The notes under the pieces are model-generated. The model made no database searches, was not told where the DNA came from, and saw only the letters and a program-made list of their open reading frames with translations. Positions 2,242-57,431 of a stretch of 64,000 nt of DNA are shown here, piece after piece; within the stretch, counting starts at the first letter, position 1; each line of letters begins with the position of its first letter. Both the position numbers and the translations under genes were made by a program. Source of the DNA: an uncultured Candidatus Saccharibacteria bacterium. GTDB lineage: Bacteria; Patescibacteriota; Minisyncoccia; Minisyncoccales; Staskawiczbacteraceae. The stretch spans positions 66,329 through 130,328 of the forward strand of contig CAYZNK010000003.1 of assembly GCA_964479955.1 (NCBI GenBank), given 5' to 3'.

Positions 2242-3966
2242 ATGGTTTTACTGCAAGAATTATACGCAAACGGAATACTTTCTGACAGTAGAAAAGAAGA
2301 ACTGGAAAAGGAAATTTTGAGTACCGGAAAAAAAGAAGAAGAGGTTATTTTAGGCCAAAAGATTATATCAGAGGCTGCTTTGTTTGAGCTGAAAAGCAGA
2401 GTTTTAAGGATACCGCTAAAAAAGATCAAGCCAGAAGACATATCTTCTGATGCTTTAGAATTGATTCCCGAAGAAGCATCTGCTAATTACAAAATGATTT
2501 CTTTTTCCAAAGCAGAAAATTTTGTTCAGGTGGCAATGGTTTATCCTGAAGATATATCTGCCCAAAACGCACTTAGGTTTTTGGCAAGTCAGGAAAAATT
2601 TAATTATCAGGTTTACTTGATAACCCCTGAGAATTTTAGTGAATTGCAAAAACAAAGAAAAACAATAGGGAGGGAAGCTCAAAAAGTCTTGGAGGAATTA
2701 AGCAAGGAAAAAGAAGATATTTTGGGAACTTTAAGCCAGAAAATATCTGCAGCGGAGGTTATAACAGACGACGCTCCGATTATAAAAATGGTTTTGGCAA
2801 TAGTAAGGCACGCCATTGAGGGCAAGGCGTCTGACATACATATAGAGCCAGGACGAGAGAAATTAAATGTAAGGTTTAGGATAAACGGAGTTTTAAAATC
2901 AGACCTTTTGCTTCCATTAAAAGTGCATCCCTCCATTGCTGCCAGAATAAAGATTTTATCAGGATTAAAAATAGATGAGAACAGGATTCCGCAAGATGGA
3001 AGATTTTCAGCGAGAATAAATGACAGGGACTTAGATTTTAGGGTTGCGACTTTTCCAACTCTTTATGGAGAAAAAATTGAGCTCAGGGTATTGGATCCGT
3101 CCGCAGGATCAAAAACTTTTGATGATTTAGGTCTAACTGGAAAAAATTTAGAATTGGTAAAAGAAGCAATAAAAAAACCTTATGGATTAATCCTGTTTAC
3201 GGGTCCTACTGGCTCAGGAAAAACAACAACCCAGTATGCAATATTGAGAATTTTAAATCAAGAAGGAGTTAATATAGTGACTGTTGAAGACCCTATTGAA
3301 TATTCCATATCAGGGATAAATCAGTCTCAAATAAGACCGGAAATTGGTTATACATTTGCCAGTGGACTCCGTCAAATTTTAAGGCAAGATCCCAATATAA
3401 TTATGGTTGGAGAAGTTCGAGACGAAGAAACAGCAAGTCTTGTTATGAACGCCGCCTTGACGGGGCACGTTGTCCTTTCTACGTTGCATACTAATTCTTC
3501 TGTCGGGGTTGTTGCTAGATTGATGGATATGGGGGTAAGGTCTTTTTTGATTCCTTCAACATTAAGAATTGTAATTTCTCAAAGGCTTGTAAGGACTTTA
3601 TGCAGTAATTGCAAGATAAAAACAAAACCAAGCCTCAAAGTAAAAGATTTTATTTTAGACAAGATTAAAGACCTTCCAGAGCATGCAAAAGCAAACCTTA
3701 AACTTCCCGACCCTTTGTTTATATACTCGGCAAAAGGTTGCGACCAATGCAAAAATACCGGATATTCGGGCAGAGCAGGCTTGTTTGAAGTTTTTTCCAT
3801 GAATGATCAAATTGCCCAATTGATTCTCAAAGACCCTACGGAACAGTCAATTTTTAGAGAAGCAGTAAAACAGGGGATGGTTACAATGGAGCAGGAGGGA
3901 ATATTAAAAGTTTTATCCGGCCAGACAACTATGGAAGAGATAACCCGTGTTACAACCGAAAGATAG
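2242..3966 (+). CDS. pilB: type IV pilus assembly ATPase PilB (GspE family)
   Basis: The 574-aa ORF has Walker A GPTGSGKTTT, a VGEVRDEETA Asp box, a LSTLHTN His box and a tetracysteine motif (CSNC...CDQC). Confidence 0.9.
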   Translation: MVLLQELYANGILSDSRKEELEKEILSTGKKEEEVILGQKIISEAALFELKSRVLRIPLKKIKPEDISSDALELIPEEASANYKMISFSKAENFVQVAMVYPEDISAQNALRFLASQEKFNYQVYLITPENFSELQKQRKTIGREAQKVLEELSKEKEDILGTLSQKISAAEVITDDAPIIKMVLAIVRHAIEGKASDIHIEPGREKLNVRFRINGVLKSDLLLPLKVHPSIAARIKILSGLKIDENRIPQDGRFSARINDRDLDFRVATFPTLYGEKIELRVLDPSAGSKTFDDLGLTGKNLELVKEAIKKPYGLILFTGPTGSGKTTTQYAILRILNQEGVNIVTVEDPIEYSISGINQSQIRPEIGYTFASGLRQILRQDPNIIMVGEVRDEETASLVMNAALTGHVVLSTLHTNSSVGVVARLMDMGVRSFLIPSTLRIVISQRLVRTLCSNCKIKTKPSLKVKDFILDKIKDLPEHAKANLKLPDPLFIYSAKGCDQCKNTGYSGRAGLFEVFSMNDQIAQLILKDPTEQSIFREAVKQGMVTMEQEGILKVLSGQTTMEEITRVTTER

Positions 3967-4098
3967 CAAAACGAATTTCTAATTCCTGCCTGTGGCGGGC
4001 AGGTTCATTAAATTCTTAATGAAATAACTTATAAATACTTAGAAATTGAGACATGGATATTTAATAGAAATTAATAATTAGAAATTAAATAAAAAGTA

Positions 4099-5163
4099 AT
4101 GGATTATTTATCATATTTTAAAAAGATTTTAGAGATAGCTGTTAAACAAGAAGCTTCTGATATAGATATTTCAGTGAACTATGTTCCGCACATAAGAATT
4201 ACCGGCCAGCTTGTGCCCCTAGGTCAAGAGAAAACAATTTTGCCAAAAGATTCTGAGGGCCTTGCTTTTGCAATAATGTCAGAAGAGCAGAAAAATAAAT
4301 TTTTAAAAGAAAAAGAAATAGATTTTTCTTACGAATTTGAAGACAAAGGCAGATTCAGGGTTAATATTTTTTACCAGCGCGGTAGTATAAGCCTGGCTTT
4401 AAGATTTGTACCCTCTAAAATCAGAACTATTGAAGAATTAAACCTTCCACAGATTTTGCACGAATTCACTTCAAGGCCGCAAGGACTTGTTTTGGTGACA
4501 GGCGCTTCAAGTCAGGGAAAATCAACAACCCTTGCCGCTATTTTGGATGAAATAAACCATACAAGGCCCGTGCATATAATAACAATTGAAGACCCGATAG
4601 AATACACATACCCTGTGAGCAGAGCAATAGTTGACCAAAGGGAAGTCGGAATAGATACACTTTCTTTTCCAAGGGCATTAAGAGAGGTTTTGCGGCAAAA
4701 TCCGGATGTTATAATGGTTGGAGAGATGAGGGACTTGGAAACTATTTCAACTGCAATAACGGCAGCTGAAACCGGGCATTTGGTTTTTGCCACTTTACAT
4801 ACAAACGGAGCGGCTCAGGCAATTCATAGAATGGTTGACGTTTTTTCTGCTGAACAGCAAAACCAGATAAGGCTTCAGTTGGCGTCTTCTTTGCTGGGTA
4901 TAGTTTCGCAAAGGCTTATACCAAGAATCCAGGGAGGGTTTATTCCTGTTTGCGAAGTCATGCTTTGTAATAACGCAATTTCAACCTTGATAAGGGAAAA
5001 CAAAACCCACGAAATTGCAGCTGTTATAGAAACATCTTCAAAAGAAGGAATGATTTCTTTAAGCAGGGCATTGGTTGACTTAGTGAGAAGAAAAGAAATA
5101 TCCCTGAAAAATGCAACAGATTACGCGCTGGACCCTAACGAAGTAAAAAACCTATTACGTTAA
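4099..5163 (+). CDS. pilT: twitching motility/retraction ATPase PilT
   Basis: The 354-aa ORF has Walker A GASSQGKST and the motifs ITIEDPIEY, MVGEMRDLETI and FATLHTN. The size is typical of PilT. Confidence 0.9.
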   Translation: MDYLSYFKKILEIAVKQEASDIDISVNYVPHIRITGQLVPLGQEKTILPKDSEGLAFAIMSEEQKNKFLKEKEIDFSYEFEDKGRFRVNIFYQRGSISLALRFVPSKIRTIEELNLPQILHEFTSRPQGLVLVTGASSQGKSTTLAAILDEINHTRPVHIITIEDPIEYTYPVSRAIVDQREVGIDTLSFPRALREVLRQNPDVIMVGEMRDLETISTAITAAETGHLVFATLHTNGAAQAIHRMVDVFSAEQQNQIRLQLASSLLGIVSQRLIPRIQGGFIPVCEVMLCNNAISTLIRENKTHEIAAVIETSSKEGMISLSRALVDLVRRKEISLKNATDYALDPNEVKNLLR

Positions 5164-48604: not shown

Positions 48605-48630
48605 AACTAACAAAATAACAAATTTTGAAT

Positions 48631-48667
48631 GGGCAACGTCGGACGTTGCCCGTTTATTTTTTTGAAG
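48631..48667 (+). terminator. intrinsic terminator after groEL
   Basis: GGGCAACGTC (48631-48640) pairs with GACGTTGCCC (48642-48651), followed by GTTTATTTTTTT. Confidence 0.8.
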
Positions 48668-48743
48668 TGTGGATAAATTAGTTTGAATGTACCTTTTATA
48701 TTGTTTATAATTAAAAAATATTTTAATAAACATATTTTGCTCT

Positions 48744-51131
48744 ATGTTCATAGAAAATTTGCAAAACAAAATTAAAAATTTTTTACAAAAAGAAATTGTG
48801 TTTTTCAAAAAAGGGGATTTTATCTTTTCTGTCAAACCTCTTCCGGCTTTGCAGGGAATTTTACTGGTTTCGGTTTTTTTGTTTCTTTTTATTTTTACCC
48901 ACATTCCTCCTGGTCCAGAGAAAATAAACCAGTCTCTGGTTATTTCTGAATTTGCAACAAAAACCCGCGCTGTTGCCGGAAAAACTTCAGAACACATTGT
49001 TTTAATCAAAAAAAGCGAAATTACAAAAAATAATTATTATTTAAAACTTCCAAAAACAGCTGAAAATATTAAAATATCAAGCGTTTCATCCCAGACAGCA
49101 AAAATAGCTTTGCAGGATTACAGTACAACCCCTTTGGTTTTGCCCGAAGAAAGAAAAGTTTTTGCAAAAAAAGAGAAAAGTTCCATATTTGCAGGGATTT
49201 CCAGTTTATTTTCTCAAAGCATGGCTGACTTAAGCGAAGCCGTTTTGGATATTATGGAAAATTCAGATAACAGCCAAATAAATGTTCCAATAACAGAACA
49301 GGAAGATTCTATTTATGTTGACTTGTCCTCTGAATCAGAGGAAACTGTCCAACCAGAAGAGTTGACACAAGAAACATCCGTTGCCGAAACGCCAGCACAA
49401 GAGCCTGTTGATGAAGCAACAGCTGAAATACCTGCTGATGAGGTTTTAACAGACAAAGAACAACATAAAGCCAGCAAAACCGAGCAGGAATTAAATAAGG
49501 CAGACAAAGAAAAACAAACTAAAGAAAAAACATCCAAACAGGACCAGGAATCTGACTTGCCATCTGAATCACAGGAAACTGTCCAGCCAGAAGAGCCAGC
49601 AGAAGAACCGCCCGCCATTGAACCGCCCGCAGAAGAACTGCCCGTTGATGAACCGCCCGCAGAAACACCAACAGAGGAAACTCCATCAGATAGCCCGGAA
49701 ACAGAATTAACAGAAGCCGTGCCAGAAGAGCAAAAAACAGTTGACAGCGGAGTTTCTGAACAAGAATATGTTCAGATAACCTATGAAACTCCTGCTCCGG
49801 AAATAACAGAGCAAGAAACAGACACAGGAAAACTCATAACCGTTTTGGCAGACGATGAAGGTTTGCCAGAGCCCATATCAAATGTTGTTGCATATACTGC
49901 AATCCCTGAAATCTACAAAGTTGGCCAGGAATCCAAAATAAAGCTTAAATGGAAAAACCAGGGCGACCAGGAAGTTGAATTTCACGCCTATGACACAGAC
50001 AACAACGGAAAGCTTGATTATGTTGAGTGGACAATCCCGCATTTGTCAGAACAGATTTTTGAAATCATCTTCATTTCCAAAGCCTTCAGGTTAGATGAAA
50101 ACAAGGAAATCACAGAAGATATTTACGAATATGTTCAGGCAAAAGACAGCAACTGGGTCACATTAAACAGCAAAGAATATATCAGAGTAACTTTTGAGCA
50201 AATCTTAGACAATACAAAAGACATAACCGTTTACGCAAAGCCAACAGGAGAATCAGCAGGGACAATACAGGTTTATGAGCAGGGAACAGACACGCTAATA
50301 GTTGAGTTTCCTGCAATAAACGCAGAAAACACATACAAAGTTTTGCTGACAAACCTGCAAAACCCGTCAGATGTTTTTGACCTTAAAATCACAGGCAATA
50401 TTGATTTTGATTATATTGTTGACCCTACGGTAAGCGACAGTTTTAGTGATGAAACAAAAATCGGGGCAGGCACAACTTATGTCCAGCTTAGTAGCGGAGT
50501 ATTAATTCAACCTTGTTATGTTCCAAATCCATCATGGACAAAAATTGCAGACACTTTGGTAAGGGATATTGCCGGAGCATACAACTCCACAATAGCAAAA
50601 GATATTTACTGCGATGACAGCAACTGCATTTTGTGGACAGACGGGGCAGAAGCCCCAGGCACAGTCTGCATTGCAACAGACGCAAATGTTTACGCAAATA
50701 TTTTGTGGTCAAAAACAGATGTGTCAGGAACACAAACATGGTCAGACACAAATTTTGACTTGTACGGGGGTGACATAGGCGGGACACATTCCACAATAGG
50801 GGTTGGAAATGGAAATACTGCTGTTGGAACAAAAAATTGGCTTGAAAGATATTACAGCAATTCTGCTTCCGGAACTTTCAACGCAATGGATGCCTGTAAG
50901 GCAAAAGGAATTGGCTGGAGACTGCCAACAATTGTGGAATTAGACAGCATAAGGGACCAGGCAAAAGGAAGCTCGCCATATTCCAGGTTGCCTAATATTG
51001 TTGCGATCGGCTATTGGTCGTCTTCCGAGTATTCCACGACTAACGCCTACAGCTTGTACTTCGGCAGTGGCAATGTGCTCAACCTCGCTAAGTCTAGCAG
51101 CTACTACGTGCGCTGCGTCCGAGGGTATTAA
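48744..51131 (+). CDS. DGR target (variable) protein: N-terminally anchored surface protein with C-terminal DUF1566/C-type-lectin-fold-like variable domain
   Basis: It has an N-terminal TM segment and an acidic P/E-rich repeat region. The C-terminus GWRLPTIVELDSI...YWSSSEY...YYVRCVRGY contains the VR. Confidence 0.85.
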   Translation: MFIENLQNKIKNFLQKEIVFFKKGDFIFSVKPLPALQGILLVSVFLFLFIFTHIPPGPEKINQSLVISEFATKTRAVAGKTSEHIVLIKKSEITKNNYYLKLPKTAENIKISSVSSQTAKIALQDYSTTPLVLPEERKVFAKKEKSSIFAGISSLFSQSMADLSEAVLDIMENSDNSQINVPITEQEDSIYVDLSSESEETVQPEELTQETSVAETPAQEPVDEATAEIPADEVLTDKEQHKASKTEQELNKADKEKQTKEKTSKQDQESDLPSESQETVQPEEPAEEPPAIEPPAEELPVDEPPAETPTEETPSDSPETELTEAVPEEQKTVDSGVSEQEYVQITYETPAPEITEQETDTGKLITVLADDEGLPEPISNVVAYTAIPEIYKVGQESKIKLKWKNQGDQEVEFHAYDTDNNGKLDYVEWTIPHLSEQIFEIIFISKAFRLDENKEITEDIYEYVQAKDSNWVTLNSKEYIRVTFEQILDNTKDITVYAKPTGESAGTIQVYEQGTDTLIVEFPAINAENTYKVLLTNLQNPSDVFDLKITGNIDFDYIVDPTVSDSFSDETKIGAGTTYVQLSSGVLIQPCYVPNPSWTKIADTLVRDIAGAYNSTIAKDIYCDDSNCILWTDGAEAPGTVCIATDANVYANILWSKTDVSGTQTWSDTNFDLYGGDIGGTHSTIGVGNGNTAVGTKNWLERYYSNSASGTFNAMDACKAKGIGWRLPTIVELDSIRDQAKGSSPYSRLPNIVAIGYWSSSEYSTTNAYSLYFGSGNVLNLAKSSSYYVRCVRGY
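50997..51125 (+). repeat. DGR variable repeat (VR)
   Basis: It aligns gap-free with 51356-51484 over 129 nt. All 15 mismatches are at positions where the TR has A. Confidence 0.9.
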
Positions 51132-51355
51132 TTCAATTAAATTTTCAATATGTAAAGATAATTTAAAATTTGGAATTTCACGCGCCGCCCGATTCTTACA
51201 AAGCTCGCCACGTATTGGCATAAAGCTTGTAAAGAGAGTGCGCAAGAATATTAAATACGACTCCTGTCGCGCATAGGAACAAGTCATGCGCATCGATTGT
51301 CAGAAAGTTTCTTTTAAATTTAAACTTTCGGAGAAATGATTCGTGCGGGAGAAAA

Positions 51356-51484
51356 ATTGTTGCGAACAACTATTGGTCGTCTTCCGAGAATTCCACGACT
51401 AACGCCTACAACTTGAACTTCAACAATGGCAATGTGAACAACAACGCTAAGTCTAACAGCAACTACGTGCGCTGCGTCCGAGGG
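51356..51484 (+). repeat. DGR template repeat (TR)
   Basis: This noncoding copy is rich in AAC/AAT triplets. It is identical to the VR except at 15 adenines. The 3' 23 nt are GC-rich and invariant (IMH-like). Confidence 0.9.
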
Positions 51485-51530: not shown

Positions 51531-51893
51531 ATGTATAACTTAGAACATCTTCCAATTTATTTAAAAATTTACCGGTTTATAAAATTTTTATATGAAGTAG
51601 TCAAAAATTTTCCAAAGCAATATAAATACACATTAGGAGAAGATATTTTAAAAATTGCATGGGAATGTCTGGATGAAGCCATAGAAGCCAACTCTTTGCC
51701 GAACGATAAGAAGTTTCTAAAAATTCAGGCTTTAAGTGTAAGTTTTGATAAACTAAAAATAAGAATGAGAATGGCCCATGAAATAGAAGCGATATCTTTG
51801 GGTCAGTTCTCACACATGAATGTTTTTTATACAAAAGAAATCGGAGAAATGGTCGGAGGATGGCTTGCGTGGGCAAAATCTTATAAATTATGA
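51531..51893 (+). CDS. avd: DGR accessory variability determinant (Avd-like four-helix-bundle protein)
   Basis: The 120-aa ORF is predicted helical. It lies between the TR and the RT, and its stop overlaps the RT start (ATGA at 51890-51893). Confidence 0.8.
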   Translation: MYNLEHLPIYLKIYRFIKFLYEVVKNFPKQYKYTLGEDILKIAWECLDEAIEANSLPNDKKFLKIQALSVSFDKLKIRMRMAHEIEAISLGQFSHMNVFYTKEIGEMVGGWLAWAKSYKL

Positions 51894-53053
51894 GTTCTAA
51901 AATTTTTACTTTTGAAAAAATTTATAAAGCCTATCTTGATTGCCGCAAAACAAAAAGAAAGACAATCAATGCCCTTAAATTTGAATTTTGTTTTGAAAAA
52001 AATATATTCTTGCTAATGGAAGAATTAAAAAATAAAACATACAAGCCCGGTCGTTCAGTCTGTTTTGTTGTAAAAAATCCTTCACCAAGGGAAATATTTG
52101 CGGCAAATTTTAAAGACAGAGTTGTTCATCATATTTTAATAAGAGAAATTGAAAAAATAGGAGAACGAAAACTTATTTATGACACGTTTTCCTGCAGAAA
52201 AAGAAAAGGAACACATCTTGCTGTTAAGAGATTAAAAAGCTTTATAAAAAAAGCTACAGAAAACCACACAAAAGAAGCGTTTTATATACAAATGGATATC
52301 TCGGGTTTTTTTATGGCAATAGACCACAATATTTTGTATTCAATTTTTGAAAAAATAATTTTAAAGCAAAAAAAGACCCGAATATGGAAAGATGATATTT
52401 TATGGCTGGCAAAAACAATTATTTTTTCAAAACCAACTGAAAATTATCTAATTAAGGGTCAGCGTTCTTTGTTTAATATTTTGCCAAAAAGAAAATCTCT
52501 TTTTTATTCTGACAGCAATAAAGGCCTGCCTATTGGAAATTATTCTTCACAATTTTTTGCCAATCTTTATTTGAATAAATTAGACCAATTTATAAAAAGA
52601 GAGTTAAAATGCAAATATTATGCAAGATATGTTGATGATTTTATATTGATTGACAGAGATAAAAACAAACTTATTGAAGCAGAAAATAAGGTGAATAATT
52701 TTTTGAAAACAGAACTTGACATGAGCCTTAATCCGAATAAAACAAAATTGAAATCGTTAGATAGCGGAATTGAATTTTTGGGATATTTTATAAAACCCCT
52801 TTGCATTTTAACCAAACAAGGGGTGGTAAAAAGGGCAAAAGAAAAAATATACAGATTCAATCAATTGGAAAATTTAAATATTGATAAAGTTATATCCGTA
52901 TTAAATTCTTATTACGGACACTTTAACCACGCTAATACATTTAATTTAAGAAAGTCAATTTTTGAAAACTGCGTGGGGGGGGGGGGCTTAAAGGGAAAGA
53001 TTTTAGTTTCAGCAGATTATAAAAAAATAATTTTGAAAAAAATCAATGCATAA
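51890..53053 (+). CDS. DGR reverse transcriptase
   Basis: RT motifs are QMDISGFFMAIDH, LPIGNYSSQFFANLYLN, YARYVDDFILI, LNPNKTKL and IEFLGYFI. Confidence 0.9.
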   Translation: MSSKIFTFEKIYKAYLDCRKTKRKTINALKFEFCFEKNIFLLMEELKNKTYKPGRSVCFVVKNPSPREIFAANFKDRVVHHILIREIEKIGERKLIYDTFSCRKRKGTHLAVKRLKSFIKKATENHTKEAFYIQMDISGFFMAIDHNILYSIFEKIILKQKKTRIWKDDILWLAKTIIFSKPTENYLIKGQRSLFNILPKRKSLFYSDSNKGLPIGNYSSQFFANLYLNKLDQFIKRELKCKYYARYVDDFILIDRDKNKLIEAENKVNNFLKTELDMSLNPNKTKLKSLDSGIEFLGYFIKPLCILTKQGVVKRAKEKIYRFNQLENLNIDKVISVLNSYYGHFNHANTFNLRKSIFENCVGGGGLKGKILVSADYKKIILKKINA

Positions 53054-53109
53054 AAAATCAGTTAAAATTTCCTTATTTAACAATTAATTGCAGTCTTTTG
53101 TGGTAGAAT

Positions 53110-53643
53110 ATGGGCATAAAACAAAATAAAGTTAAAATATATATTGACGGAGCAAATATATTTTATACTCAAAAAAGGTTGGGTTGGTTTATTGATTGGC
53201 TAAAGATAAAAAATATTATTGAAAAGGAAAAAGAAGTTGCAGAATGGAAATATTATGTTGGCGTAAAAGACGGAGATGAAAAAATGATGGATTATATAAA
53301 ATATCTTAATAATATTGGTTTTTATACAGTAACAAAATCATTGAAAAAGATTAAAGTTATCAAAGATAAAATTTCCCCCAAAACGCAAGAAAGGGAATTT
53401 ATTTATAAGGCGAATTTTGATGTGGAAATGACAGCAGATATTTTGTTGGATAAATCCAAACTGGATGAGATTATAATTTTTAGCGGCGATAGCGATTTTA
53501 GATATTTGGTTAAAAAATTAAAGGATGCAGGGATTAAAACAATGGTTTATTCATCTAGAAAAACAATATCGTGGGAATTGAAGTTAGAAATTTCAAAAAT
53601 TGTTTATTTTGAAGATATTAAAGATGAAATATTAAGGCAATAA
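53110..53643 (+). CDS. NYN-domain (LabA/DUF88-like, PIN-related) putative ribonuclease
   Basis: Motifs are KIYIDGANIFY and IIIFSGDSDFRYLVKKLKDAGIKTMVY. It is co-oriented 57 nt downstream of the RT and is followed by a hairpin. Confidence 0.75.
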   Translation: MGIKQNKVKIYIDGANIFYTQKRLGWFIDWLKIKNIIEKEKEVAEWKYYVGVKDGDEKMMDYIKYLNNIGFYTVTKSLKKIKVIKDKISPKTQEREFIYKANFDVEMTADILLDKSKLDEIIIFSGDSDFRYLVKKLKDAGIKTMVYSSRKTISWELKLEISKIVYFEDIKDEILRQ

Positions 53644-53644
53644 A

Positions 53645-53676
53645 AACCCACTCTAGCTTTCGCCAGAGTGGTTCTG
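53645..53676 (+). terminator. hairpin after the NYN gene
   Basis: CCACTCT (53648-53654) pairs with AGAGTGG (53665-53671). The T tract is weak. Confidence 0.45.
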
Positions 53677-53710
53677 TTAAACTAATTTAATTATAGCAAA
53701 TTAAAAAACC

Positions 53711-56700
53711 TTGTCAACAGCAAAAACAAAAATTAAAAGTTGGTTTTCAAAGGCAATCATTGTTGTTGCGGTTTTGCTTTATGTTTTTGGAATTGCCTTA
53801 ATTTATGCTGAAACTTATTATTCTTCGGCAATTTTGGTTTCAACAAATTTATTGTCGGGATTAACAATAAACAGCGTTGATTATTTTGGATATAATTGCA
53901 GTATTCTGGCAAACACTACATTGAAGGTTCAGTTTAGCCAGGACGGGGATTCCTGGTATTCTGCAAGCCATGTTGCAGATACATGGACGGATTTGTCAGA
54001 CGGAAGCCATCTTGATTCAGGCTCCGGGGCTATAGCTTTGTCCGGGTTTGATATTGATACGCCTAATCCTGAATTTTATTACAAAATACAGCTTAGCACA
54101 TCTGATACAGCAACAACTCCCAATTTCATTTCTGTAAATTTAATTTACAATACAGGTTCTTACGCAACCGCAACAACACAAGCCGCATCCGGAGTCTTGG
54201 CGCTCACTGCCACAGGCAACGGAAATATCACAGGCGCAGGAAGCTCAACAATAACAAAAAGAGGGTTTCAGTATGGCATAAGCCAGACAGCAAATTTAAG
54301 GGAAGTTTCTGAAACAGGAACATTTGGAACAGGGGCATTCTCATTGGAGCTTACATATTTATACGCCGGAAAAACACATTATGTGAGGTCATTTGCGCAA
54401 AACTCAGAAGGAAGGGCTTACGGAGACTGGCAGGAGTTTACAGCGCTTGATAATTATTATTATTCTTCGGCTGTTGGGGTTTCCTCAAATTTATTATCAG
54501 GACAGACAGTAAACAGCATAAACGGGTTTTTTGCCACAACAAGCATTCCTTCGGGAACAGGAATTACAGCGCAATTTAGCCAGGATAATTCTTCTTGGTA
54601 TTCGGCAGGAGGAACATTGGACGGAACAACATCTTTGTCTAACGGGGAAAACCAAATTGATTTGACAGGTCTTGGATGGTCGGGAGCCAATTTTTACTAC
54701 AAGGTTGCTTTAAGCGCTGACAGCGGAAGATTGGAAACTCCTGTGTTGCAGTCTGTTTATTTAAATTACAATGTTCCGATTGAGTCTTCGGGACCTTCAG
54801 ACAGTGGCTCTTCTGCGTCAAATCCAACACTTTCGGGAAGCGATATTGATTTTTCAATAACTGCCACTGATTCAGAGTCTGATAATTATTATCTTGCAGT
54901 CTGCAAAACAAATTCAATCACAGCCAACAATGAAGCCGTCCCAACTTGCGGGGGCGGAAATTGGTGCATTTCTGACTCAACTGTTTCTGCAAGCCAGGCT
55001 TCCTGCAGTTATACAACATCTGGCACAGATGAGGGGGATAATAGTTGGTATGCTTTTGTTTGTGACCATAATGCAGAATCTGCTTGCTCTGTTGCTATGC
55101 AGGGAACAGGGGATAATGGCTCTCCTTTTTCAGTTTACATTGACTCAACAGCTCCAACCACAACAGCAGACGCAGGAAGCTATGTTTTTGGAAATTGGTC
55201 AAAGGAAAATGTTGAAGTCTCTTTGTCCTGCGATGACGGGTCGGGTTCCGGATGCGCAACTACAAAATACTGCACAGACACAGACAACACCTGCACTCCA
55301 ACCACAGATTACACAACTGCCGTCACAATTTCCACAGAAGGCACAAGCTACATCAGGTATCTTTCAACTGACAATGCAACCAACGAGGAAACAGCCAAAA
55401 GTTCAACCGTCAAGGTTGATAAGACAGCTCCAACCACAACAGCAGACGCAGGAAGCTATGTTTTTGGAGAAACATCAACATCAGCAATCACAGTCACCTT
55501 GGTCTGTTCAGATGGTTCGGGTTCCGGATGCCTGTCCACACTTTATTGTACAGACACAGACAACACCTGCACGCCTGCAACAAGCTATACAACTGCCGTC
55601 ACAATTTCCACAGAAGGCACAAGCTACATCAGGTATCTTTCAACTGACAATGCAACCAACGAGGAAACAGCCAATTCAGAAACAATTGTAATACAAACAT
55701 CAACTTCCACTCCGTCTACAGGAGGGGGGTCTATGTGGCTTCCTATTGGTCAGCAGGAAGCAGAAGACAACAATAAACAAGAGGATGATAAAAAGCCTGC
55801 TTTAGAGATTGATAAAAACATTATTTTACAGATAGGCCAACAATTAAAAGACATGGCAGATGGAGCAATGGAATTTTTCTTTGGTAAACAGCAAACTGCG
55901 GTTTCAGAAATAACTATTCCAGAAGAAACTCCCGAGGCTTTTGAGAATATAGAGATTATGGGGGAACTGCCCGCAGAAAGTTTAGAAATTTCATTTATAG
56001 GGGACAATATCAGTTTTTTCTCCGGAAAATTGCCGGATTTCTCACAGACAATGCAGGATTTAGGAATAAATGATTTAAATAATTTAAGGGAATTGGGCGG
56101 AGCAGAATTTATTTTGCCCGGAATTGCTTCTTTTGTTGGCGTAGAAGTTGGGGATGTTGAAGTTGGCTTGAATATACCTGTAGTTTCTATTGCTAATATG
56201 AACCGGGAAGAAAAGGACAAAATTCCAACAGACATTATTTTTGCAAGAACAGCAGCAGAATCAATAGAGCATAATATGGCAATTTCAGTCAGCGATTCCG
56301 GGGATGTTGAACAGAGAATTTCATTGATAGCAAGCCAAAAAGTTGAACTGATAATAAAGCCGCAAAACACAGCCAAAAGAATAACTGGAATAGTTATTTT
56401 AAAGAATAAGCCCGAAGCAAAACTAAATCCATTTTCTGACCTGTGGAGATATTTTTCGGCTGCCTTAAGCGGGTATAACACAGACGAAGAAAATTTGGAA
56501 ACATACGGTTTGCTTTTGGATAAGTTTGAATATTTTTACGAAGGTGACGGAATTTATAAAGCAGAATTTAAGGCTCCTGTAAATGAGGGAGAATATGAAA
56601 TAATAACAATTATTGAATACGAAGAAAGCAGTTTGCGTTCAAAGGGAATAAAATTAATTGCCGCAGTTGACCCTGAGGGATATATTTTTAGGAAACTTCC

Positions 56701-57094
56701 ACAGGGAGAGCTTAGGGTGAGGGATGCATTGGTGTCAATTTATTGGCTTAATTCTGAAACCGGAGAATACGAACTTTGGCCGGCTAAAAAATATTTTCAG
56801 GAAAATCCGCAGACAACCGATGATACGGGAAGATATGTTTTTTTGGTGCCAGAGGGAATATATTACCTTAAAGTTGAAGCTAAAGGATACCACACTTATG
56901 AGGGCAGTCCGTTTTCAGTGGTCAAAGATATCGGTGTGCACAAAAATATTGAATTAAAAAAGAAGGCGGAGTGGAAAGAGTGGCTTGATTGGAAAATTTG
57001 GATAATAATAATTCTGGGCATTGTTATTGCTTTAATTGTTTATAAATACATTAAAAATTTAATTTCAAAAAATGGAACAGAAAAAAATATTTAA
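53711..57094 (+). CDS. very large surface protein with internal repeats and C-terminal TM anchor
   Basis: The start is TTG. It has an N-terminal hydrophobic segment, two ~110-aa related modules (SSA..VS.NLLSG.T.NS...QFSQD..SWYSA) and two tandem 92-aa Cys-containing modules. It also has a CarboxypepD_reg-like segment (GRYVFLVPEGIYYLKVEAKGY) and a C-terminal TM helix. Confidence 0.7.
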   Translation: MSTAKTKIKSWFSKAIIVVAVLLYVFGIALIYAETYYSSAILVSTNLLSGLTINSVDYFGYNCSILANTTLKVQFSQDGDSWYSASHVADTWTDLSDGSHLDSGSGAIALSGFDIDTPNPEFYYKIQLSTSDTATTPNFISVNLIYNTGSYATATTQAASGVLALTATGNGNITGAGSSTITKRGFQYGISQTANLREVSETGTFGTGAFSLELTYLYAGKTHYVRSFAQNSEGRAYGDWQEFTALDNYYYSSAVGVSSNLLSGQTVNSINGFFATTSIPSGTGITAQFSQDNSSWYSAGGTLDGTTSLSNGENQIDLTGLGWSGANFYYKVALSADSGRLETPVLQSVYLNYNVPIESSGPSDSGSSASNPTLSGSDIDFSITATDSESDNYYLAVCKTNSITANNEAVPTCGGGNWCISDSTVSASQASCSYTTSGTDEGDNSWYAFVCDHNAESACSVAMQGTGDNGSPFSVYIDSTAPTTTADAGSYVFGNWSKENVEVSLSCDDGSGSGCATTKYCTDTDNTCTPTTDYTTAVTISTEGTSYIRYLSTDNATNEETAKSSTVKVDKTAPTTTADAGSYVFGETSTSAITVTLVCSDGSGSGCLSTLYCTDTDNTCTPATSYTTAVTISTEGTSYIRYLSTDNATNEETANSETIVIQTSTSTPSTGGGSMWLPIGQQEAEDNNKQEDDKKPALEIDKNIILQIGQQLKDMADGAMEFFFGKQQTAVSEITIPEETPEAFENIEIMGELPAESLEISFIGDNISFFSGKLPDFSQTMQDLGINDLNNLRELGGAEFILPGIASFVGVEVGDVEVGLNIPVVSIANMNREEKDKIPTDIIFARTAAESIEHNMAISVSDSGDVEQRISLIASQKVELIIKPQNTAKRITGIVILKNKPEAKLNPFSDLWRYFSAALSGYNTDEENLETYGLLLDKFEYFYEGDGIYKAEFKAPVNEGEYEIITIIEYEESSLRSKGIKLIAAVDPEGYIFRKLPQGELRVRDALVSIYWLNSETGEYELWPAKKYFQENPQTTDDTGRYVFLVPEGIYYLKVEAKGYHTYEGSPFSVVKDIGVHKNIELKKKAEWKEWLDWKIWIIIILGIVIALIVYKYIKNLISKNGTEKNI
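55148..55699 (+). repeat. tandem 276-nt (92-codon) intragenic repeat x2
   Basis: ACAGCTCCAACCACAACAGCAGACGCAGGAAGCTATGTTTTTGGA starts at 55148 and again at 55424. A long identical stretch, ACAACTGCCGTCACAATTTCCACAGAAGGCACAAGCTACATCAGG...GAAACAGCCAA, is present in both units. Confidence 0.85.
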
Positions 57095-57431
57095 AATAGT
57101 GCTTATTTCAATATTGTGCGTTTCTTTGGCGGCAAATGCAGCCTTGCTGTTTTTGGGCGTTAAAATGTATAAAGAGCTATCGTCTGCCAGAGATTCAAAA
57201 CAGCAGAATTCAAAGATGCTGTCGTTTGCAAATATTTTTATTGAAAAGATTCTGCTGGCGGAATCTGACATTGATTTTGATACAAGGCTTGAATTGGAAA
57301 CGCGCGTAAGGTCTCTAAATGACAGCGAGATACTGAGCCAATGGCAAAAGTTTACAAAATCAGACAGCCTTAATGCAAGCAGAGAAGCAAAATATCTTTT
57401 GAATTTGCTTGTAAAAAAATCAATAAACTGA
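57072..57431 (+). CDS. small membrane-anchored hypothetical protein
   Basis: The ORF has an N-terminal hydrophobic helix. I recognise no family. Confidence 0.4.
   Translation: MEQKKIFKIVLISILCVSLAANAALLFLGVKMYKELSSARDSKQQNSKMLSFANIFIEKILLAESDIDFDTRLELETRVRSLNDSEILSQWQKFTKSDSLNASREAKYLLNLLVKKSIN

Follow-up and report, generated by a model that had tools for sequence, protein, structure and literature searches.

Genes at the locus

The window analysed here is a 64,000-nucleotide stretch of contig CAYZNK010000003.1 (GenBank assembly GCA_964479955.1, uncultured Candidatus Saccharibacteria bacterium). We focus on a NYN-domain gene at 53110..53643 on the plus strand, on the small RNA (sRNA) gene that converges on its 3' end and on the diversity-generating retroelement (DGR) directly upstream, which ends in a reverse transcriptase (RT) gene. 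The initial annotation proposed the NYN gene as a new accessory gene of the DGR, with an unrelated neighbour as fallback. We find that the NYN gene and its convergent sRNA are kept as one unit in every context examined, and that they very probably form an autonomous module (~53110-53717) that is not part of the DGR.

The 177-aa product of the open reading frame (ORF) contains both motifs quoted in the initial annotation, KIYIDGANIFY and IIFSGDSDFRYLVKKLKDAGIKTMVY, and its assignment to the NYN/LabA type is borne out. Pfam places the protein in NYN (PF01936) with E=7e-22 and a score of 78.9 bits, the cut-off being 24.2; the match spans positions 1-139 of the 145 in the profile. A profile of 38 homologues retrieves the LabA-like structure 2qip in a PDB profile search (E=2.4e-12). 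The AlphaFold (AF2) model has a pLDDT of 90.9; with this model Foldseek points to 2qip as the fold (E=2.7e-11, TM 0.77/0.84) and also to the MARF1 NYN domains 5yaa and 6fdl (E ~1e-5). Among the 38 homologues D104, D127 and D129 are invariant and D13 is nearly so; judged by their position in the motifs, these four are the putative metal-site residues of a PIN-like enzyme. On sequence and model, we regard this as a genuine NYN/LabA-type, PIN-like gene for a predicted metal-dependent nuclease.

We use the name NYN-A for the tight family of orthologues that are 54-93% identical to the window protein. A database of 5.8 billion proteins holds 553 such close homologues, with names from Staskawicz-, Doudna-, Jorgensen-, Uhr- and Nealsonbacteria. 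NYN-A resembles the LabA-like NYN nucleases (PF01936, NYN.COG1432, 2qip = VPA0982) in sequence, fold and acidic active-site residues, and like them is a stand-alone, single-domain protein of ~170 aa. It differs in being a tight, Patescibacteria-specific subfamily only 24% identical to 2qip. The function of the NYN.COG1432 cluster is listed as unknown, and neither an sRNA partner nor a toxin-antitoxin (TA) role is described for it (Matelska et al. 2017, PMC5499597). A PHROGs search returned nothing useful.

A predicted convergent small RNA gene at the 3' end of NYN-A

When the downstream flanks of NYN-A genes are aligned across contexts, conservation extends ~75 nt past the stop codon. In the window the minus strand of this region reads, in order, TTGACA, a 16-nt spacer, TGcTATAAT, ~6 nt, AGTTTAACAGAA (53683-53672), a hairpin and GTTTTTATT. 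The consensus scan finds a perfect 12/12 sigma-70 promoter here (53717->53690, minus strand), with the -35 box TTGACA at 53712..53717 and the -10 element, extended by TG, at 53690..53698. Promoter and terminator geometry predicts an sRNA of ~44 nt (53640..53683, minus strand). Its 5' segment would be a conserved single-stranded leader of 12 nt, AGUUUAACAGAA, followed by a 10-bp GC hairpin with a GNRA loop (GAAA) at 53648..53671 that would serve as intrinsic terminator. The U-tract (53646-53642) overlaps the NYN stop codon TAA (53641-53643).

The two strands are not equivalent. Fold energies for the window hairpin are -19.0 kcal/mol (minus strand; z=-5.4) and -13.2 kcal/mol (plus strand). The minus-strand tail after the hairpin is GTTTTTATTG; the plus-strand reading places an A.C mismatch in the stem and has the tail TTCTGTT. 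The initial annotation took this hairpin as the first terminator of the avd-RT transcription unit. A hairpin does follow the NYN stop codon, but the consensus scan lists it as a terminator on the minus strand only.

Each of the 76 NYN-A genes whose flank is long enough is followed by the same element (TTGACA-N16/17-TGnTATAnT / AGTTTwACAGAAC / hairpin / T-run). Across 60 aligned loci the -35 box (T5-C9) is invariant and the leader invariant or nearly so. Most loops, in minus-strand reading, are GAAA or GCAA. The hairpin pairs in 99.1% of 548 cells on this strand, against 29-51% in slid controls. Compensatory changes are seen in 8 of the 10 pairs, with 77 double-change cells compared to 22 in shuffles. 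Read on the plus strand only 88.9% of the cells pair, and 56 G.U cells turn into A.C. The hairpin is under selection as a minus-strand RNA. A covariance model (R1) scores 91 bits and has a single copy in the window. Rfam (15) contains no matching family, a permissive threshold yielding chance-level matches only.

Other identities for the 3' element were considered. A plus-strand terminator combined with a promoter for the downstream gene was rejected, because promoter consensus, G.U pairs, GNRA loops and U-tract fit the minus strand only. An integron attC site, to which GTTAAAC would correspond (GTTRRRY), was dropped since the motif lies within the transcribed leader and attC-like imperfect repeats are absent. 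The downstream gene starts within the TGTCAA box in the window and in locus L172 (loci are cited by our own numbers, the window's lineage being L001) and does not at the ATP synthase loci, so this overlap is not general. In 62 loci no consistent target of the leader was found in the NYN mRNA from -50 to the stop codon, neither in the 5' region nor in the coding sequence.

At the other end of the gene an extended -10-like sequence, TGGTAGAAT (53101..53109, plus strand), abuts the NYN start codon and is possibly, though weakly, a remnant of a NYN-A promoter. The pattern TGnTAnnnT occurs within 50 nt upstream of 23 of 69 NYN-A genes, against 94 of 625 control genes (15%; p=5e-4). Because TGGTAGAAT is too close to the ATG for conventional use, NYN-A in the window may depend on read-through from the RT gene.

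Genomic contexts of the module

The NYN-A copy at 93% identity belongs to the same lineage and has the same DGR context. The next-closest copies (80-81% identity) are located between atpA and atpG in the ATP synthase operon, and a copy of 72% identity follows pheS. Among 80 metagenomic NYN-A loci (51 with at least 1.3 kb upstream) an RT is present only on the same-lineage contig. The orthologues occupy ~60 distinct other loci and contexts in Patescibacteria, none of them beside a DGR RT. The closest named relative, the Staskawiczbacteria metagenome-assembled genome GCA_026395195.1, carries its RT (70% identity) on contig 14, directly followed by a homologue of a 1127-aa protein that adjoins the NYN gene in the window, and its NYN-A (80%) on contig 59 in the ATP synthase operon. 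The order atpA, NYN-A module, atpG is found in three loci (L004 2154-5661, L088 and L089).

Neighbour genes of NYN-A are highly diverse, the largest neighbour cluster comprising 8 loci. They include LamG and beta-helix surface proteins, HigB/HigA-type pairs, Bro-N, PilB-like ATPases, pheS and atpA. Neighbour clustering reveals no conserved protein antitoxin gene adjoining NYN-A; the sRNA is its sole conserved partner. Genes flanking NYN-A lie on its strand in 83-88% of cases in all contexts, and consequently the co-orientation with the RT, to which the initial annotation drew attention, is uninformative.

Comparison of the window with 19 NYN-A loci (blastn) yields similarity from ~53114-53134 to ~53698-53738 and nowhere else; between loci, DNA similarity stops at the sRNA -35 box. 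Given that the element follows all NYN-A genes checked and that similarity ends at this box, gene and sRNA together make up an autonomous module of ~610 bp. Of the two options in the initial annotation the unrelated neighbour comes closer to the truth, although an autonomous inserted module would describe it more exactly.

Some individual loci deserve mention. On a 1.7-kb contig without RT (L160, 43-916) a gene for a bAvd-like four-helix bundle lies directly upstream of NYN-A, and two further NYN-A loci have a homologue of this ORF two genes upstream. In L089 (2758-2845, plus strand) and L139 (4476-4560, plus strand) second, divergent NYN genes have a promoter, hairpin and U-run upstream on the same strand; this element is leader- or attenuator-like, not convergent.

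The convergent design is not confined to NYN-A. Matches to the strict promoter motif are few, with one in the 64-kb window and 1.5 and 0.36 per 100 kb in GTDB RT loci and viral loci, respectively. Even so, 79 of 100 NYN ORFs, from all subfamilies, have it directed into their 3' end. A convergent promoter of the form TTGACA-17-TGCTATACT is present at NYN genes of two further subfamilies, NYN-B in L170 and NYN-C in L172, and at the two in L261; each gene has its own, accompanied by a hairpin and U-run in all cases but the second L261 gene. PemK/MazF-like genes in L170 (2644-3128) and L103 (5381-5865) likewise have a convergent promoter and hairpin sRNA at the 3' end and are without an adjacent protein antitoxin. 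NYN genes cluster with each other and with TA genes. The design also closes HigB/HigA-type pairs, after the HigA-type gene, and small ORFs of unknown function; further loci with such pairs or small ORFs are L110-L112 (643-1014), L145 (3632-4021) and L101 (404-933). In L258 (5368-5639) it closes an 80-aa ORF right after a DGR RT.

The DGR and the surface-protein gene

The surroundings of the module form an AT-rich locus of Patescibacteria type, with groES-groEL and uvrA upstream. The DGR that precedes NYN-A is complete, comprising target gene, variable repeat (VR), template repeat (TR), avd and RT, all on the plus strand. The target gene (48744-51131) has an Lcl_C C-terminus and contains the VR at its 3' end (50994..51125). 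The TR (51353..51484) is 88% identical to the VR, and each of the 16 mismatches in 132 nt falls on a TR adenine; no second VR is present in the window. The avd gene (51531..51893) matches bAvd (PF22296, E=2.7e-18), and Avd scores 77.5 bits against NCBIfam DivGenRetAVD, slightly below the 80-bit cut-off. The RT gene (51890..53053) matches Pfam RVT_1, and its close homologues are DGR RTs accompanied by Avd. A strong plus-strand terminator follows groEL (48626-48656), and a 10/12 promoter (48683-48711) ahead of the target gene is the likely start of a transcription unit running through the DGR.

The RT gene contains a homopolymer of 12 G at 52975-52986. A tract of 9-12 G near the 3' end of the RT gene is found in every checked member of the closest RT clade (L001, L007, L167, L168, L170, L172, L174, L175 and L176). 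Differences in its length shift the C-terminal frame, giving products of either 363-367 or 373-404 aa. Phase variation of the RT C-terminus by strand slippage is one possible cause, assembly noise another.

On the right side of the module lies the gene of the 1127-aa membrane/surface protein (53711..57094, plus strand; "big protein" below), whose annotated TTG start (53711) is overlapped by the sRNA -35 box. Homologues adjoin RTs in 17 of the 80 GTDB loci described below, and in L167, which has no NYN gene, the RT gene runs up to, or into, the start of the homologue. Since this gene directly follows the RT in relatives that lack NYN, it marks the right side of the NYN insertion. N-terminal homologues directly after the RT were seen in L007, L014, L016, L021, L012, L025 and L031. 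The 1127-aa gene and an overlapping gene for a 119-aa transmembrane protein (57072-57431) recur as a pair near DGR RTs in ~10 of 80 species-level loci and in close relatives (L027, L029, L034, L040, L041, L043, L046, L047, L057, L167 and L258). The recurrent neighbour of the DGR is this pair, not NYN.

NYN genes around DGR reverse transcriptases

RT loci were scanned for NYN genes with jackhmmer from three seeds, given that a hidden Markov model of close homologues misses divergent NYN subfamilies. The broad set consisted of 80 species-level GTDB DGR RT loci (652 kb; RTs 39-70% identical to the window RT; 66 loci with at least 700 bp downstream), the viral set of 80 loci (826 kb). An adjacent NYN gene was found in 0 of 80 GTDB loci and in 0 of 80 viral loci. 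The 652 kb of GTDB loci hold two NYN genes, 2.5-3.3 kb from the RT, which is background-like.

Results are different for the closest RT clade, which we defined as RTs at least ~64% identical to the window RT and which comprises 11 distinct lineages (neighbourhood look-ups, distance clustering). NYN-domain genes occur in 4 of these 11; with the window left out, 3 of 10 lineages have one in or beside the cassette and none of the 80 broad-set loci does (Fisher p ~0.001). The gene orders are avd-RT-NYN(A)-big protein in the window lineage, avd-NYN(B)-RT-PemK in L170, avd-RT-NYN(C)-big protein in L172 and target-NYN(C)-TR-avd-RT-NYN(C')-big protein in L261. The other lineages read avd-RT-big protein (L167), RT-big protein (L176 and L007), avd-avd-RT-... 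(L168), avd-BroN-RT (L175), avd-GIY-YIG-RT-BroN (L174) and avd-BroN-GIY-YIG-RT-80aa-big protein (L258). The two L261 genes (Staskawiczbacteria; 1279-1752, between VR and TR, and 3702-4229, after the RT) are both of the NYN-C type and 46% identical. Small Bro-N or GIY-YIG genes between avd and RT, or just after the RT, were noted in L174 (968-1255 and 2450-3286), L175 (1597-2439) and L258 (3356-4016).

The recurrent linkage by which the initial annotation would have its proposal judged is thus present at the level of the domain and absent at the level of orthologues: NYN-A stands beside an RT in one lineage among 80 loci, and none of the 160 other RT loci has an adjacent NYN gene. The enrichment of NYN genes in the closest DGR clade is real and unexplained. 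In this clade the DGR junctions look like variable cargo slots rather than the seat of a dedicated accessory function. NYN genes sit at three of them (VR/TR, avd/RT and RT/downstream), and the same junctions hold Bro-N, GIY-YIG and PemK genes and a second avd. The NYN genes belong to at least three unrelated subfamilies; A, B and C share no more than 22-25% identity, whereas the adjacent RTs are 70-80% identical.

It might still be argued that NYN-A is an accessory nuclease, co-transcribed with avd and RT, which processes the TR RNA or removes the RNA template, at least in the Staskawiczbacteria-type clade. Parts of the initial annotation fit this well. The NYN gene does start 57 nt after the RT stop on the same strand (the RT gene ends at 53053, leaving a 56-nt gap), and the consensus scan shows no plus-strand terminator between RT and NYN, nor any terminator-like site on that strand between the groEL terminator and the hairpin at 53648-53671. 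Moreover, NYN genes lie inside or against the cassette in 4 of 11 lineages, and repeated recruitment of non-orthologous genes could in itself mean a selected function. The known accessory genes of DGRs, namely Avd, HRDC, MSL and CH1, include no nuclease; they track RT clades and are defined by their recurrent presence in DGRs (Wu et al. 2018, PMC5758913). NYN-A resembles them as a small same-strand gene that abuts the cassette, but it is almost always found away from DGRs (all of the other ~60 distinct loci are of non-DGR context), and the NYN genes of related cassettes are non-orthologous and variable in position. An adjacent NYN gene is absent from 7 of the 11 close lineages as well as from the broader sets, and the NYN subfamilies do not follow the RT tree. 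The NYN genes bring their own convergent promoter or sRNA, and they share their slots with unrelated genes. The leader matches neither the TR region nor the rest of the window more often than chance predicts (11 complementary matches against 9.2 expected), and the literature searched contains no report of NYN genes linked to DGRs. We therefore consider the accessory nuclease very improbable and do not maintain the view of NYN-A as a dedicated DGR partner. Nor does the module belong to the machinery of mutagenic retrohoming.

A variant would have several NYN subfamilies, each leashed by its sRNA, repeatedly recruited to act on DGR RNA by trimming the TR or clearing the template. It would agree with the ~20-fold enrichment of NYN genes in the 11 closest RT lineages and with the non-orthologous copies at shared junctions, yet we rate it as no less remote. 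If true, the recruited RNases would be the first nuclease partners of a DGR, and RNA-controlled.

A toxin-antitoxin-like reading of the module

Our best overall explanation combines the autonomous module with a TA-like mechanism, and we put it at roughly 60%, a compromise figure for the two parts together. The module would move between sites in Patescibacteria genomes, and in the window lineage it would have landed between the DGR RT and the surface-protein gene that is normally next to the RT. There, NYN-A and its sRNA may act as a toxin-antitoxin or addiction system, possibly of the abortive-infection kind, in which the NYN RNase would be the harmful component and an abundantly transcribed sRNA would restrain it. 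PemK toxins without a protein antitoxin are flanked by the same arrangement, and PIN-domain toxins offer an analogy; on these grounds we propose a TA-like system with an RNA partner. For this mechanism taken by itself we see slightly less than an even chance.

Restraint could work in more than one manner. In a type I-like option the sRNA would pair with the complementary 3' end of a read-through NYN transcript, and in a type III-like option the protein would bind the sRNA directly. We lean towards type III-like recognition, because the leader is nearly invariant, which antisense pairing would not require, and because no target was found in the NYN mRNA. Given the strand asymmetry and the position of the module upstream of atpG in three loci, the hairpin does not appear to be a strong plus-strand terminator; it would terminate efficiently in the minus direction only, so that host operons read through the module. 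The avd-RT transcript probably continues through NYN into the 1127-aa gene.

Several points weigh against this explanation. Overlap between the sRNA and the NYN gene is confined to the stop codon and 3' flank, and since neither the 5' region nor the coding sequence has a conserved pairing site, a classical type I block of translation is unsupported. The ends of the putative sRNA are predicted from promoter and terminator geometry, and toxicity and RNA-protein binding are postulated. Convergent sRNAs also occur 3' of HigA-type antitoxin genes, whose systems already have a protein antitoxin, which makes it conceivable that the RNA is a general insulator or regulator of cassettes and not an antitoxin. 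With respect to the movement of the module, 4 NYN-domain genes fall within ~64 kb of the close DGR clade but 2 within 652 kb of other RT loci, a ~20-fold difference in density for which a purely neutral model of landing does not account. Finally, NYN-A proteins share 60-80% identity across several candidate phyla, which is unusually high for a toxin and makes a beneficial cellular RNase possible.

Such an RNase would be tuned by the sRNA as a cis-antisense RNA, with the convergent promoter and terminator acting mainly as a transcriptional insulator, and it would be a mere neighbour of the DGR, gene order being fluid in these small genomes. The strong purifying selection with invariant catalytic residues agrees with this, as do the housekeeping neighbours (pheS and ATP synthase) and the sRNA after HigA-type genes, which suggests a generic regulatory device. 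In addition, LabA-like NYN.COG1432 proteins have been linked to tRNA/rRNA processing neighbourhoods, with no TA role described (PMC5499597). On the other hand, NYN-A has no conserved neighbourhood, and its distribution is suggestive of patchiness (553 homologues against more than 6700 for the RT in the same protein database). Insertion into the atpA-atpG junction, DNA similarity that begins and ends with gene and sRNA, and clustering with TA genes and other NYN paralogues likewise speak against it. We regard a cellular role as unlikely.

A related possibility is an anti-phage abortive-infection gene in a variable island shared with the DGR, with the sRNA as sensor or antidote whose loss on infection would free the RNase. 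PADLOC reports matches to its 'NYN' model (E=1.9e-15) and to HEC-09 (9e-7), but the PADLOC match covers only the generic NYN domain (positions 147-303 of a longer model of 310). Neighbours elsewhere include Gp49/HTH, Bro-N, PemK and HepT/MNT, and variable slots between conserved genes resemble defence hotspots. Against this, no NYN-A relatives were found in the viral contigs of IMG/VR, and the conservation is high for a defence gene. We judge a dedicated defence role somewhat less likely still than the cellular one, although it overlaps with the TA-like explanation instead of excluding it.

Comparison with known toxin-antitoxin systems

Type I systems with antisense RNAs overlapping the 3' end of the toxin gene include txpA/RatA and bsrG/SR4, and enzymatic type I toxins are known from SymE/SymR and RalR/RalA. 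Like type I systems, the module would combine a protein gene with a small, strongly promoted RNA that converges on it in antisense orientation, the two sharing a bidirectional terminator region; it is also compact and apparently mobile. It differs in that NYN-A is a 177-aa soluble PIN-like enzyme rather than a small (<60 aa) hydrophobic membrane peptide, in that the overlap is restricted to the stop codon and 3' flank, and in that the ~44-nt RNA has a conserved leader sequence not needed for pure antisense pairing.

In type III systems (ToxIN, CptIN, TenpIN) an endoribonuclease toxin is neutralised by a small structured RNA encoded adjacently. Likeness to these would explain the conserved RNA sequence of the module, but the fold is NYN/PIN-like and not ToxN/AbiQ-like, and the RNA is a single convergent unit instead of tandem repeats upstream on the same strand. 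VapBC and other type II systems with PIN domains would resemble the module in having a PIN-like, Mg-dependent RNase as harmful partner and a scattered, multi-copy, island-associated distribution; they differ by the conserved adjoining protein antitoxin gene that NYN-A lacks. The module would thus work like a type I or type III system while failing defining features of both, in toxin size and type and in the arrangement of the RNA.

Conclusions

The coupling of a NYN/LabA nuclease to a predicted convergent hairpin RNA of ~44 nt is invariable and widespread in Patescibacteria, and apparently it is undescribed, as judged from Rfam 15 and the literature searched, in which no report of NYN proteins with RNA antitoxins in Patescibacteria was found. 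We advise against listing this NYN gene among the DGR accessory genes and against taking the hairpin behind it for the terminus of the avd-RT operon. If the RNA-controlled toxin role is true, it would give a function to the bacterial stand-alone LabA-like NYN proteins, which are without an established one. The range of RNA-antitoxin systems would then widen to include PIN-like enzymes and, apparently, PemK/MazF homologues without a protein antitoxin. Within one clade of the candidate phyla radiation, DGR cassettes resemble hotspots in which such modules, as well as Bro-N and GIY-YIG genes, accumulate at each of the intergenic junctions, an observation relevant to the maintenance and spread of DGRs in ultra-small genomes.

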